Assembly (NCBI RefSeq): GCF_030013205.1
Contig: NZ_CP122648.1
Strand: one strand, 5' to 3'
Length of the DNA stretch: 64,000 nt
Source: Escherichia coli
Lineage (GTDB): Bacteria > Pseudomonadota > Gammaproteobacteria > Enterobacterales > Enterobacteriaceae
The position numbers and the translations under genes were made by a program. Below are positions 8,580-59,628 of the stretch, in pieces. A model generated the notes under the pieces. It searched no databases and had not been told where the DNA came from. It saw nothing but the letters and a program-made list of their open reading frames with translations. The first letter of the stretch is position 1. Every line of letters begins with the position of its first letter.

Positions 8580-8771
8580 ATGCTTGGTAAGGTATTTTTT
8601 GTGGTTTTGTCATGTTCTTTGTTATTAAACCCACTAACTACCTATGCTAGAAATTATCCCTGTTCAGGGAAAAAGGGAGGTGTTTCTCACTGTACCTCAG
8701 ATGGCAAATTCGTTTGCAATGATGGAACTATTAGTAAATCCAAAAAAATCTGTACTAAAAACTCACGATAA
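8580..8771 (+). CDS. Small secreted Cys-rich protein (63 aa), cargo gene in the cI-int operon
   Basis: Strong GGGAGG ribosome-binding site 6 nt upstream; N-terminal signal-peptide-like hydrophobic segment followed by a Lys/Cys-rich mature region. Confidence 0.5.
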
Positions 8772-8959
8772 CTTTTGCTTTTATATCTGCGCCTAAAATA
8801 AAAATGAGCCGCAGGTTAACCGCAAAAGTTACATGCTCACATAGCAAAAAGAATAGCCAACTTAATTATGGCTTCAGTGAGATGTATGGTCGTAGGATTT
8901 CATACATTGACACTGGTTATACATACAGTGAAAATGCTCTCTACTGGAGGGCATTTTTT

Positions 8960-10012
8960 ATGGCAGTACGAAAACTCACCACAGGGAAATGGCTTTGCGA
9001 ATGTTACCCCGCCGGACGTAATGGGCGTCGTGTGCGTAAACAATTCGCCACCAAAGGCGAAGCACTGGCCTTCGAGCGATACACCATGGGGGAAATAGAA
9101 GCAAAGCCCTGGCTGGGCGAATCAGTGGATCGTCGGACACTGAAAGATATGGTTGAGCTATGGTTCAAATTACATGGCAAATCTCTTACTGCCGGACAGA
9201 ATGTCTACAACAAGCTGCTGTTGATGGTTGACGCCTTGGGAAATCCCCTTGCAACTGATCTCACCTCAAAAATGTTTGCTCACTATCGCGATAAACGCCT
9301 TACTGGTGAAATCTACTTCAGTGAAAAATGGAAGAAAGGAGCAAGCCCAGTTACTGTTAACCTGGAGCAAAGCCATCTAAGCAGCGTTTTCAGAGAACTT
9401 TCCCGCCTGGGTGAATGGACACTTCCAAACCCATTAGAGAAGATGCGCAAATTCACTATCGCAGAAAAGGAAATGGCATGGCTTACACATGAGCAGATTA
9501 TCGAATTACTGTCTGACTGCAAACGTCAGAACCCAATTCTGGCACTGGTAGTCAAGATATGCCTAAGCACAGGCGCACGCTGGCGAGAAGCAATAAATCT
9601 TACCCGCTCACAGGTGACCAAATACCGAATTACCTTTGTAAGAACGAAGGGGAAGAAAAACAGGAGCATCCCTATCAGTAAAGAGCTTTACGAAGAGATC
9701 ATGGCGCTTGATGGGTTCAATTTCTTTACAGACTGCTATTTTCAATTTTTATCCGTGATGGAAAAAACGTCTATCGTGCTCCCTCGCGGTCAACTGACAC
9801 ACGTTCTGCGCCATACGTTTGCGGCGCATTTCATGATGTCGGGTGGAAATATCCTTGCTTTGCAAAAAATCCTCGGACATCACGATATAAAAATGACTAT
9901 GCGTTACGCACATCTGGCACCGGATCATCTGGAAACGGCGCTCCGTTTCAATCCTCTGGCAACGCTGCCAAGTGGCGACAAAGTGGCGGCAGCGGTTGGC
10001 ATTACCCCGTAA
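8960..10012 (+). CDS. int: Tyrosine integrase (P2/186 family)
   Basis: ORF 8804-10012; start set at internal Met (MAVRKLTTGKWLCECYPAGRNGRRVRKQF...) typical of P2-family integrases; C-terminal HxxR...Y catalytic region (LRHTFA...MRYAHL). Confidence 0.85.
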   Translation: MAVRKLTTGKWLCECYPAGRNGRRVRKQFATKGEALAFERYTMGEIEAKPWLGESVDRRTLKDMVELWFKLHGKSLTAGQNVYNKLLLMVDALGNPLATDLTSKMFAHYRDKRLTGEIYFSEKWKKGASPVTVNLEQSHLSSVFRELSRLGEWTLPNPLEKMRKFTIAEKEMAWLTHEQIIELLSDCKRQNPILALVVKICLSTGARWREAINLTRSQVTKYRITFVRTKGKKNRSIPISKELYEEIMALDGFNFFTDCYFQFLSVMEKTSIVLPRGQLTHVLRHTFAAHFMMSGGNILALQKILGHHDIKMTMRYAHLAPDHLETALRFNPLATLPSGDKVAAAVGITP

Positions 10013-10116
10013 TAACCACCACTGACCACCACATTAAGTTATTGTTTTTCATCTAACTTATTGTTTTTATTAACCCATTTAGATAAGTGGTTTTTTTGTT
10101 GCCTGAAATTTATCTA

Positions 10117-21590: not shown

Positions 21591-21977
21591 ATGGGTGTGT
21601 ATAAGGCAAGACGATTCAGCCAAAGCACGAAAAAACTTGGTATTCACGATAAAGTTCTCATGGCTGCCGCTGAAGAAGTGATGCAGGGCATATGGGAGGC
21701 TGATTTAGGTAGCGGTGTCATCAAAAAACGTTTACCCCTCCAACAAGGAAAGAGTGGTGGAGCCAGAACAATTATCTTTTTTAAATCAGCAAATCATGTG
21801 TTTTTTTATGATGGTTGGTCCAAGAGTGGTCTAAGCAGTAAAGGAACCAAAGAAATCGAAGATGATGAACTGGCGGCCTACAAAAAAATGGCAAATGCAT
21901 TTCTGGCCTTTAGCACTAAGCAAATAGAGGATTTGATCGAAACTGGCTTTTTGATTGAGGTGAAAAATGAGCGATAA
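21591..21977 (+). CDS. Type II toxin-antitoxin RelE/ParE-superfamily toxin-like protein
   Basis: 128 aa ORF with KSGGARTIIFF core resembling RelE/ParE-fold toxins; 11-nt overlap with downstream HTH gene; not in this position in the K-12 gene order as I recall it. Confidence 0.6.
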   Translation: MGVYKARRFSQSTKKLGIHDKVLMAAAEEVMQGIWEADLGSGVIKKRLPLQQGKSGGARTIIFFKSANHVFFYDGWSKSGLSSKGTKEIEDDELAAYKKMANAFLAFSTKQIEDLIETGFLIEVKNER

Positions 21978-22296
21978 ATTACAAATGATGCTGGAAGATG
22001 CAAAGGAACTGAATGCACTGGGCCTGATGTCTGATAGTGAAGTTGATGCCATTGCCGTCATGGTCAAAGCTCGTGAAGTCAGCGCCCGTATAGCCAAAGT
22101 CAAATCAATGACGGGTGAAGAGATCAAAGCCATCCGCACCCGATACGGCATGTCACAATCCGTGCTGGCACATACAATGGGAATGTCAAAAGAAAGTGTC
22201 TCGAAATGGGAACGTAATGAAATAAAACCGAGCGGCCCGGCATTACGTATTTTGAATACATTGGCAATAAAAGGGCCGGAAGTTTTTGCAAAGTAA
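21967..22296 (+). CDS. HTH (XRE-type) DNA-binding antitoxin-like protein
   Basis: 109 aa ORF; C-terminal HTH (MSQSVLAHTMGMSKESVSKWERNE) with N-terminal extension; coupled to upstream toxin-like gene. Confidence 0.6.
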   Translation: MSDKLQMMLEDAKELNALGLMSDSEVDAIAVMVKAREVSARIAKVKSMTGEEIKAIRTRYGMSQSVLAHTMGMSKESVSKWERNEIKPSGPALRILNTLAIKGPEVFAK

Positions 22297-49811: not shown

Positions 49812-49965
49812 ATTTACATTTCTGCATGGTTATGCATAACCATGCAGAATTTCTCGCTACTTTTCCTCTACACCGTCTTTATATATCGAATTATGCAAAA
49901 GCATATTTATTCCGAAAATTCCTGGCGAGCCAATAAATAAGAATTGTTCTTATCAATATAACTAA

Positions 49966-56545: not shown

Positions 56546-56820
56546 AGCATTCTCCTTTAAGCAGCGGCGTAAGATACCCGCATAACGCGACAGGGTAAAT
56601 ATCTGGCTGCGTTTATCATTTCTAAAAACCTTAACATGGCTATGGTTTATGGCAATTCATCATAAAAATCAGCATCATGCATGTCATTGATTTGTCTTAT
56701 TTTGTAAAAATATATCGTTCAAAAAACAAGCGTATCTCTGTCAATTTTTTGCGTCATTTTCATCGCCCAGGCGACCTACACTTATCAGGCACTACCCGTT
56801 GTATTTATGAGGATGTCATT

Positions 56821-57081
56821 ATGAAAAAGTGCCTCACACTACTGATTGCCACCGTCCTGAGCGGAATCTCTCTCACGGCTTATGCCGCGCAACCGATGAG
56901 TAACCTGGACAGCGGTCAGCTACGGCCCGCCGGTACCGTTTCGGCAACTGGCGCATCAAACCTAAGCGATCTGGAGGATAAACTGGCAGAAAAAGCGCGC
57001 GAGCAAGGCGCGAAAGGTTATGTCATTAATTCCGCAGGCGGAAATGACCAGATGTTCGGTACTGCAACCATCTACAAATAA
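56821..57081 (+). CDS. mcbA: Colanic acid/biofilm regulator McbA (YhcN/DUF1471 family periplasmic protein)
   Basis: 86 aa from MKKCLTLLIATVLSGISLTAYA; paralogous to ybiJ in this window. Confidence 0.85.
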   Translation: MKKCLTLLIATVLSGISLTAYAAQPMSNLDSGQLRPAGTVSATGASNLSDLEDKLAEKAREQGAKGYVINSAGGNDQMFGTATIYK

Positions 57082-57214
57082 CCCCACCAACGTAACTGCA
57101 TTCGCCTCTGGATGCAGTTTTCGCCTGTTTTGTAATCAAAAAACATCAAATATGAACGTAATGTAAATAAATGTATTTCTTTTTCGCACAATGGGTGATA
57201 GAAAATCGCGCCAA

Positions 57215-57243
57215 GTGATAATGCTTATCAAAATTATTATCAC
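57215..57243. promoter_or_regulatory. Candidate Fur box upstream of fiu
   Basis: Inverted repeat GTGATAAT-N13-ATTATCAC containing GATAAT hexamers, about 100 bp upstream of the fiu start. Confidence 0.55.
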
Positions 57244-57345
57244 TTGCACGAGCACTATCACGAGATTAACAGTGGCATCGCATCCGCAGAGAGGCTTTCT
57301 CGTGGCAGTGAAAATTTCAACATATAAGAAAAAGTCACCTGCAAA

Positions 57346-59628
57346 ATGGAAAACAATCGCAATTTCCCTGCCAGACAATTTCATTCGCTCACGTTCTTTG
57401 CCGGTCTTTGTATTGGCATCACGCCTGTGGCTCAGGCACTCGCCGCCGAAGGGCAAACTAACGCGGATGACACGCTGGTTGTCGAAGCATCAACGCCTTC
57501 GCTTTATGCGCCACAACAATCTGCAGATCCGAAATTCTCGCGTCCGGTAGCGGATACTACCCGCACGATGACGGTGATTTCTGAACAAGTGATTAAAGAT
57601 CAGGGCGCAACCAACCTTACCGACGCACTCAAAAACGTCCCCGGCGTGGGTGCGTTTTTTGCGGGTGAGAACGGTAACTCCACCACTGGCGACGCCATTT
57701 ATATGCGCGGTGCTGATACCTCTAACAGTATTTATATTGATGGCATTCGCGATATCGGCAGCGTCTCGCGCGACACCTTCAATACCGAGCAGGTCGAAGT
57801 GATTAAAGGGCCGTCCGGCACCGACTACGGGCGCAGCGCACCGACAGGCTCGATCAATATGATCAGCAAGCAGCCGCGCAATGATTCCGGCATTGACGCC
57901 TCCGCCAGTATTGGTAGCGCCTGGTTCCGCCGCGGCACGCTGGACGTCAATCAGGTCATTGGTGATACCACCGCGGCGCGCCTGAATGTGATGGGCGAAA
58001 AAACGCACGATGCCGGACGCGACAAAGTCAAAAATGAGCGTTACGGCATCGCCCCTTCTGTCGCTTTTGGCCTTGGTACAGCGAATCGTTTGTATCTTAA
58101 TTATCTGCATGTCACCCAGCACAACACGCCAGACGGCGGCATTCCGACCATCGGTTTGCCGGGCTATTCTGCCCCATCTGCGGGAACGGCGGCCCTGAAT
58201 CATTCCGGAAAAGTTGATACGCATAACTTTTACGGCACGGATTCCGATTACGACGATTCGACCACCGACACCGCTACCATGCGTTTTGAGCACGACATCA
58301 ACGATAACACCACCATTCGCAATACTACCCGTTGGTCGCGCGTGAAGCAGGATTACCTGATGACGGCGATTATGGGTGGGGCGTCGAATATTACCCAGCC
58401 CACCAGCGATGTGAATAGCTGGACCTGGTCACGCACGGCGAATACTAAAGATGTGAGTAATAAAATTCTCACCAACCAGACCAACCTGACCTCGACGTTC
58501 TATACCGCTTCTATCGGTCATGATGTCAGTACCGGCGTGGAATTTACCCGTGAAACGCAGACTAACTACGGCGTTAATCCGGTGACGTTACCTGCGGTAA
58601 ATATTTATCATCCTGACAGCAGCATTCATCCCGGCGGCCTGACGCGCAACGGCGCAAACGCCAATGGTCAGACGGATACCTTCGCAATTTACGCCTTCGA
58701 TACGCTGCAAATCACCCGTGATTTTGAGCTGAACGGCGGGATCCGTCTGGATAATTATCATACTGAATATGACAGTGCCACCGCCTGCGGCGGCAGCGGA
58801 CGCGGTGCCATCACCTGCCCTGCTGGCGTGGCAAAAGGTTCTCCGGTCACCACCGTCGATACCGCCAAGTCGGGCAATCTGGTGAACTGGAAAGCCGGGG
58901 CGCTGTATCACCTGACGGAAAACGGCAATGTCTATATTAACTATGCCGTTTCCCAGCAGCCTCCGGGCGGCAACAACTTCGCCCTTGCGCAGTCTGGCAG
59001 CGGTAACAGTGCCAACCGCACCGATTTTAAACCACAAAAAGCCAACACCAGCGAGATTGGCACCAAATGGCAGGTTCTGGATAAACGCCTGTTGCTCACC
59101 GCCGCGCTGTTCCGTACTGATATCGAAAATGAAGTTGAGCAAAATGATGACGGAACTTACTCGCAATACGGTAAGAAACGCGTCGAAGGCTATGAGATAT
59201 CCGTGGCCGGGAATATCACTCCCGCGTGGCAGGTGATTGGCGGCTATACCCAGCAAAAAGCAACCATCAAAAACGGCAAAGATGTTGCCCAGGATGGTTC
59301 CTCATCGCTGCCGTATACCCCGGAGCACGCCTTTACCTTATGGAGCCAGTATCAGGCAACCGATGATATTTCCGTTGGTGCGGGCGCACGCTATATCGGC
59401 AGTATGCATAAAGGTTCTGACGGCGCGGTGGGAACGCCAGCGTTTACCGAAGGTTATTGGGTCGCCGACGCTAAACTGGGGTATCGGGTTAATCGCAATC
59501 TCGACTTCCAGCTAAACGTCTACAACCTGTTTGATACCGATTACGTCGCCTCAATCAACAAGAGCGGCTACCGTTATCACCCGGGCGAGCCAAGAACCTT
59601 CTTGCTCACGGCCAATATGCATTTCTGA
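57346..59628 (+). CDS. fiu: TonB-dependent catecholate siderophore receptor Fiu
   Basis: 760 aa with signal peptide, TonB box region and terminal aromatic residue. Confidence 0.95.

Follow-up and report, generated by a model that had tools for sequence, protein, structure and literature searches.

The region upstream of fiu, the gene for a TonB-dependent catecholate siderophore receptor, carries a conspicuous dyad with arms that resemble parts of a Fur box, and this raises the question of whether the dyad is itself the unit that Fur recognizes, the outline of some other arrangement of Fur sites, or a feature with another role altogether. For decades the fiu promoter has served as a reference for Fur repression, and it is in use both as a Fur reporter and in iron biosensing. 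The Fiu protein is also one entry route for catechol-type siderophore-antibiotic conjugates, and the intactness of its operator therefore bears on the level at which that route is expressed, a point of modest practical weight.

Dyad and genomic setting

Within the window—the whole 64-kb stretch of Escherichia coli DNA that was analyzed—positions 57215-57243 read GTGATAAT (57215-57222), a spacer GCTTATCAAAATT (57223-57235), and ATTATCAC (57236-57243), which together form an exact 8-N13-8 inverted repeat. A sequence-only reading of this DNA had described a dyad with a 13-base spacer at these coordinates, and both the coordinates and the spacer length are exact; the GATAAT hexamers that it mentioned are likewise present, at 57217-57222 and, as the complement ATTATC, at 57236-57241. 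In this strain the symmetry extends outward to a 10-N13-10 arrangement (AAGTGATAAT...ATTATCACTT, 57213-57245). Even when two mismatches are tolerated, the dyad GTGATAAT-N13-ATTATCAC occurs only once in the window, and its chance expectation, estimated from dinucleotide-preserving shuffles, is about 0.01 per window.

The dyad lies inside the 264-bp intergenic region between the end of mcbA (57081) and the start of fiu (57346), with its 3' end 102 bp before the fiu ATG, in keeping with the distance of about 100 bp given by the sequence-only reading. The local gene order is glnQ, ybiO, rlmF (minus strand), mcbA, fiu, ybiX, ybiI, ybiJ. Over a 901-bp query spanning the locus, identity is 100% with swine ETEC-type strains and 95-99% with most other E. 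coli. Coordinates of the features discussed below are collected in Table 1.

Table 1. Features of the mcbA-fiu region and downstream genes, in window coordinates
Feature	Coordinates	Strand	Basis or remark
Probable mcbA intrinsic terminator, hairpin AACUGCAU...AUGCAGUU then UUUU	57094..57121	+	RNA fold
Second conserved block AATGTAAATAAATGTATTTCTTTTTCGC (AATGTAAATAAATGTATTTC...)	57160..57187	.	Mean majority fraction 0.81 vs 0.61-0.63 in neighbouring DNA
Predicted -35, GTGATA	57195..57200	+	Consensus scan; T57196, G57197, and A57200 invariant across genera
Dyad GTGATAAT-N13-ATTATCAC	57215..57243	.	Sequence, shuffles
Fur site 1, 19-mer AGTGATAATGCTTATCAAA	57214..57232	.	12.66 bits, window rank 1
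Predicted -10, GATAAT, in left arm and Fur site 1	57217..57222	+	Consensus scan; kept as Fur core
Fur site 2, AATGCTTATCAAAATTATT, centred on dyad centre 57229	57220..57238	.	12.31 bits, window rank 2
Fur site 3, TATCAAAATTATTATCACT	57226..57244	.	11.71 bits, window rank 4
Core	57216-57242		Mean majority fraction 0.86; array island 0.82-0.86
"Spacer"	57223-57235		Mean majority fraction 0.75
Adjacent DNA			Mean majority fraction 0.61-0.63
5'UTR	57245-57320		Mean majority fraction 0.55
fiu, TonB-dependent catecholate siderophore receptor, the regulated gene	57346..59628	+	ORF
ybiX, co-regulated, downstream of fiu	59670-60347
ybiI, co-regulated, downstream of ybiX	60421-60687

Fur matrix and site architecture

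A Fur matrix was built from 17 K-12 intergenic regions of established Fur-regulated operons (fepA-fes, fepD-entS, fepB-entC, fhuA, fhuE, tonB, cirA, exbB, fhuF-yjjZ, fecI, ryhB, yncD-yncE, nrdH, mntH, nfeF-nfeR, sufA, and feoA), with fiu left out. Whole intergenic regions were submitted to an unseeded EM motif search, which avoided reliance on a preset consensus; ChIP-exo peak coordinates were rejected as a training set, some of them being within genes or carrying shifted gene labels (the fecR/fecE rows). The search converged on AATGATAATCATTATCATT, the classical Fur box. The resulting matrix, symmetrised, 19 bp long, and of 14.3 bits, was scanned over 63,982 positions of the window.

The best score in the whole window falls at 57214-57232 (12.7 bits), followed in register by the sites that begin at 57220 and 57226, so that the position-weight-matrix check bears out the proposed Fur affinity of the element. 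No positive score was found elsewhere in 57185-57261 beyond these three sites. Their in-register sum, 36.7 bits, was reached by 0/20,000 null sequences with the composition of the fiu intergenic region (null maximum 32.9), and a single site of at least 12.66 bits had P=0.005 in composition-matched nulls. Leave-one-out best scores of the training regions ranged from 3.8 to 21.6 bits with a median of 15.3; the best E. coli fiu site is below that median (12.7 vs 15.3 bits) and the fiu sites, being within the range, are typical if slightly weak. The poor leave-one-out scores of nrdH and mntH (3.8 and 4.5 bits) may reflect Fur sites outside the stretch taken, or atypical sites; both regions were kept in the training set, which makes the matrix slightly more conservative.

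Consensus forms lead to the same arrangement. Fur recognition is reportedly described by a hexamer model (NATWAT, Escolar et al.) and by a 7-1-7 model of the Fur box (Baichoo & Helmann), and the element was compared with both the 19-bp consensus GATAATGATAATCATTATC and the 7-1-7 form TGATAATnATTATCA. The 19-mer consensus is matched at 15/19 positions at 57217-57235. The 7-1-7 core of Fur site 1, TGATAAT-G-CTTATCA (57216-57230), matches at 13/14 positions and is the sole 13/14 match in the window, and that of Fur site 3, TCAAAAT-T-ATTATCA (57228-57242), matches at 12/14. Read as hexamers in phase (GATAAT, GCTTAT, CAAAAT, TATTAT), the element agrees with NATWAT at 18/20 specified positions. The outermost bases of the dyad stand apart: G57215 and C57243 are the bases most disfavoured by the Fur matrix at their positions.

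The functional unit is thus three overlapping 19-bp Fur sites in 6-bp register, equivalent to two 7-1-7 boxes that share TCA, and the dyad outlines this symmetric array, with the perfect outer half-sites TGATAAT and ATTATCA as its arms and the inner half-sites within its spacer. The sequence-only reading had called the dyad a Fur-box-like element, and that identification stands as a Fur operator on the evidence of the matrix, of published ChIP-exo peaks, and of conservation; the part that does not stand is the 8-N13-8 unit with a free spacer, since the N13 segment is conserved and holds the inner half-sites, and must be counted as part of the operator.

Clusters of Fur sites spaced by 6 bp have been described before (Chen et al., 2007, NAR 35:6762), and fiu likewise has three matches 6 bp apart, with all orthologues in register; the main text of that paper does not mention fiu. 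As compared with such clusters, the fiu array shows unusual symmetry, each of its outer ends being a perfect consensus half-site, and it is this symmetry that gives it the appearance of an 8-N13-8 dyad. The operators of cirA, fepA-fes, fhuA, and fecI share the motif and, as predicted for fiu, the placement of Fur over a promoter, with leave-one-out scores of 13.4-19.7 bits; the E. coli fiu sites are individually somewhat weaker (11.7-12.7 bits) but number three.

Fur occupancy and regulation in E. coli

Seo 2014 is said to list a Fur ChIP-exo peak under the name "fiu-ybiX". The K-12 locus offers a direct comparison, which the sequence-only reading had suggested and which supports it: the 29-bp element is identical in MG1655, the 264-bp mcbA-fiu intergenic region has 6 differences, and published Fur ChIP-exo peaks map to the left part of the element. 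Under the iron-replete condition "R", peak P24 (fiu-ybiX) of MG1655 spans 840869-840893 and the corresponding fiu-ybiX peak of W3110 spans 842081-842093 (Gao et al., 2023, PMC10164565). Relative to the fiu ATG, the MG1655 peak is 115-139 bp upstream (ATG at 840754, version-2 coordinates, offset 777) and the W3110 peak 128-140 bp upstream (ATG at 841953), in agreement with each other. Together they correspond to window positions 57206-57231, that is, to Fur site 1 and the adjoining upstream DNA, with their own centres 10-17 bp upstream of that of the array. Under iron-replete conditions, Fur is thus bound in vivo to the element of K-12 strains, which is identical to that in the window, and this particular strain would presumably behave as K-12 does.

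Two positions near the array do separate K-12 from the window: K-12 has T at 57211 and 57246, where the window and most E. coli have G, and both lie outside the three Fur sites. Among 10 Escherichia sequences, T at both positions was seen only in K-12 MG1655; G is found at 57246 in all nine others and at 57211 in eight of them, the ninth having A there.

The sequence-only reading had regarded the element as expected biology for an iron-regulated receptor, and published delta-fur data, in which fiu is Fur-repressed, bear this out. In MG1655, deletion of fur raised expression by log2 fold changes of 5.47 for fiu, 5.21 for ybiX, and 3.04 for ybiI, and across nine E. coli strains the derepression of fiu upon loss of fur was 5.2-10.0 on the same scale (Gao et al., 2023, PMC10164565). 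The gene is a core member of the Fur regulon; a fiu::lacZ fusion (strain H1780) is a classical, standard Fur reporter, and a fiu promoter-lacZ fusion is repressed by Fur, the repression being stronger in air. A biosensor paper speaks of "four overlapping binding sites" of Fur in the fiu promoter, with reference to Newman & Shapiro (1999, Mol Microbiol 33:18). The element is, in short, the already known Fur operator of fiu and ordinary textbook biology; a genuine regulatory site could be recovered from raw sequence, and nothing is added to the biology of iron regulation.

Predicted promoter and mode of repression

A consensus scan of 56600-57500 returned a single plus-strand sigma-70-like site, with a predicted -35 and -10 (Table 1) separated by 16 bp in this window. 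Counted manually from the alignment, the spacing is 16 in E. coli, 17 in Raoultella, and 18 in Klebsiella despite indels, and about 15 in Pantoea. The implied transcription start site (TSS) would lie at about 57229-57230, which is the centre of the array. The text supplements of the Cappable-seq and SMRT-Cappable-seq studies list no experimental start site for fiu or near the predicted coordinate, and a literature search for primer extension on fiu returned nothing relevant. The exact positions of the -35, the -10, and the TSS, as well as the number of Fur dimers bound, are inferred.

A Fur site that overlaps the promoter is the usual layout for repression by occlusion, and the predicted promoter of fiu would conform to it. 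With sufficient iron, Fe2+-Fur dimers would fill the array, site 1 lying over the predicted -10 and sites 2 and 3 over +1 to about +15; because the array covers both the predicted -10 (57217-57222) and the predicted start (about 57229), bound Fur would exclude RNA polymerase. When iron is scarce, Fur would leave and fiu would be transcribed. Repression of fiu is thus probably by promoter occlusion, the proposed overlap of promoter and operator being drawn from the consensus scan and from conservation. As a whole, the element is almost certainly the Fur operator of fiu-ybiX(-ybiI), consisting of three overlapping 19-bp sites at which Fe2+-Fur would exclude RNA polymerase.

Two further symmetric features were seen around this promoter. 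A mirror-image promoter-like site on the minus strand (57233-57261; -35 GTGATA, 17 bp, -10 AATAAT) faces mcbA; it simply follows from the symmetry of the dyad, and outside Escherichia its -35 is not retained. A larger dyad formed by GTGATA at 57195 and TATCAC at 57256 was also considered and rejected: the right copy is unconserved outside Escherichia and has no positive Fur score, and the GTGATA copy at 57195 is better explained as the -35.

Conservation across genera

A protein-guided scan with one genome per species recovered 44 loci with a Fiu relative, 38 of which had enough upstream DNA to scan; the genera sampled were Escherichia, Citrobacter, Klebsiella, Raoultella, Enterobacter, Leclercia, Pseudocitrobacter, Silvania, and Pantoea. 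All 38 scanned loci contain two to five matrix matches of at least 8 bits in strict 6-bp register, at -97 to -129 from the ATG in 37/38 loci and at -176 to -194 in the one offset locus (L021). Most orthologue loci, including those of Klebsiella, Leclercia, and Pantoea, outscore E. coli (14-19 bits as compared with 11.7-12.7).

In an alignment of the loci of 20 species, TGATAATGnTTATCAnAATCATTATCA forms a conserved island (majority fractions in Table 1). T57225, T57226, and C57229 within the spacer are invariant across the 20 species, as is TTATCA at 57237-57242, and the outermost G and C of the dyad 8-mers are conserved only in Escherichia and two Citrobacter genomes. Within E. coli, an 81-bp promoter core containing the array occurs in 5,421/5,426 complete genomes. 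The array is almost invariant across Escherichia as a whole; one divergent clade has four changes, which jointly raise the score.

Pantoea and a genome labelled Enterobacter ludwigii retain both arms with a spacer exactly 6 bp shorter (TGATAAC-CATTGGC-GTTATCA, 7-N7-7); in these loci (L026, L027, L028, and L041) the element sits at locus positions of about 1370-1392, about 110-130 bp before fiu, and has one Fur hexamer fewer and two matrix matches instead of three. In Citrobacter of the C. braakii type, the left arm is degraded (TTAGCAAT) and high-scoring Fur sites are retained.

Two peculiarities of the public assemblies came to light in this survey. The "E. ludwigii" locus and Pantoea endophytica share exactly the same 49-bp operator core, an identity that points to a mislabelled assembly or to horizontal transfer. 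Three short contigs labelled "uncultured Bacteroides sp." or "Streptomyces sp. DH24" (L029, L045, and L046) carry Fiu fragments 98-100% identical to E. coli and are likely contamination or mis-binning in public assemblies.

Alternative explanations

A palindrome of this kind could also act as a nucleic-acid hairpin, instead of or besides being a protein site, either as a stem-loop in a fiu leader RNA that starts further upstream or as a DNA cruciform. Segment 57205-57253 would, if transcribed, fold as RNA (-16.1 kcal/mol, z -3.7, 0/200 shuffles as stable); as DNA (-9.4 kcal/mol, z -2.7) it folds as well, and three to four pairs next to the Fur core covary, although this covariation amounts to only about 2-3 independent events. 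The would-be loop, 57223-57235, is however itself conserved (0.75) and contains the three invariant bases T57225, T57226, and C57229, as expected of inner Fur half-sites rather than of a loop. The predicted TSS falls inside that loop, so that the left arm would stay untranscribed, and read-through from upstream would be limited by the probable mcbA terminator. Moreover, C. braakii-type Citrobacter have partly lost the left arm and yet keep strong Fur sites. With its loop conserved, no T-run 3' of the stem, and no Rfam match, the element resembles neither a structured RNA leader nor an intrinsic terminator, though its flanks covary; a hairpin role is accordingly very unlikely.

The GTGA...TCAC arms might alternatively mark a CRP or ArcA site, with Fur binding elsewhere. 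A supplementary table does give Fur and Crp as annotated regulators of fiu and ArcA as ChIP-bound at the fiu promoter (Park et al., 2013), but no TGTGA-N6-TCACA core with three or fewer mismatches overlaps 57215-57243, which excludes the CRP reading of the element; matches this weak are in any case not enriched in the window (192 found vs 219 expected). The ArcA reading of the dyad was rejected on position, the ChIP peak centre mapping about 50 bp upstream, to a neighbouring and different conserved block, where the authors themselves found no ArcA box. Both the Fur matrix and the Fur ChIP-exo peaks point instead to the element, and a CRP or ArcA site in place of a Fur operator is highly improbable. 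The region is also AT-rich and intergenic, and GATAAT is a good -10 hexamer, so that the dyad might be a chance palindrome with the -10 as its sole function. The rarity of such palindromes (about 0.01 expected per window) and the null-model scores, in which 0/20,000 composition-matched sequences equal the triple Fur score, exclude this reading; furthermore, conservation across some nine genera extends to the right arm and the spacer, neither of which has a part in the promoter. Chance can be dismissed with near certainty, and the Fur operator remains the preferred reading.

Complementary change in the operator flanks

The bases that flank the outer half-sites (57212-57215 and 57243-57246) show paired complementary changes between lineages. 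Positions 57215 and 57243 are complementary in 34/34 distinct sequences (T.A in 22, G.C in 8, and A.T in 4). Escherichia has the G...C pair, Klebsiella, Raoultella, and most Citrobacter have T...A, and the A...T form is that of Leclercia, Silvania, and Pantoea; 57214 and 57244 are A.T in 21 and T.A in 12. Over three to four flank pairs, the covariation score was 0.298, as compared with 0.125 +/- 0.016 in shuffles (0/500) and at most 0.076 in slid controls, a contrast that reflects only about 2-3 independent events among related lineages. Complementary change of this sort in the arm flanks is not predicted by a simple model of independently evolving half-sites. It is conceivable, if rather doubtful, that dyad symmetry is kept beyond what Fur recognition needs, whether through selection for a hairpin or cruciform, through symmetric tuning of operator strength, or through template switching at a quasi-palindrome. 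If true, the flank covariation would be a possible example of palindrome-templated mutation on a transcription-factor site.

Neighbouring elements upstream

A second conserved block lies upstream of the predicted promoter, at about -42 to -69 from the predicted fiu TSS. It contains a direct repeat, AATGTAAATA / AATGTATTTC, in which two AATGTA motifs are 10 bp apart rather than 11, followed by a T-run. The ArcA ChIP peak centres reported for fiu, 840921 and 840928 (version 2), for which no canonical ArcA box was predicted (Park et al., 2013), correspond to window positions 57172-57179, on this block. A canonical ArcA box, with TGTTA-like direct repeats 11 bp apart, is absent under the ArcA peak, where the repeats are 10 bp apart. 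ArcA probably explains the block, which could serve as a non-canonical ArcA site, as an UP element, or as both.

Further upstream, just past the mcbA stop codon, a hairpin (-14.1 kcal/mol, z -4.0, 0/200 shuffles as stable) precedes a U-run. It has one variable position in 10 Escherichia sequences and was missed by a simple terminator scan. This is probably the mcbA terminator, which would isolate the fiu promoter from upstream transcription; with such a terminator in place, fiu would need a promoter of its own.

Other observations in the window

Two further matches to the Fur matrix were seen far from fiu. One, at 1595-1613 (12.3 bits), is inside a tail-fibre assembly gene and is probably due to chance. 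The other is a palindrome, AATAAGAAttgTTCTTATC, at 49936-49954 (10.2 bits), just downstream of rhtA and, going by the gene order of K-12, presumably between rhtA and dps; the MG1655 ChIP-exo list has no Fur peak at this palindrome.

The first part of the window, 1-10014, is a degraded P2-like prophage remnant that adjoins rcdA. It retains genes for tail fibre and baseplate proteins, along with an integrase gene and an FRG-domain gene; its CI repressor is frameshifted, and tail and CII genes are truncated. Between rimO and dgcI, at about 21591-22296 in the annotation of this strain, a gene for a RelE/ParE-family toxin and a gene for an HTH antitoxin together look like a small accessory insertion.
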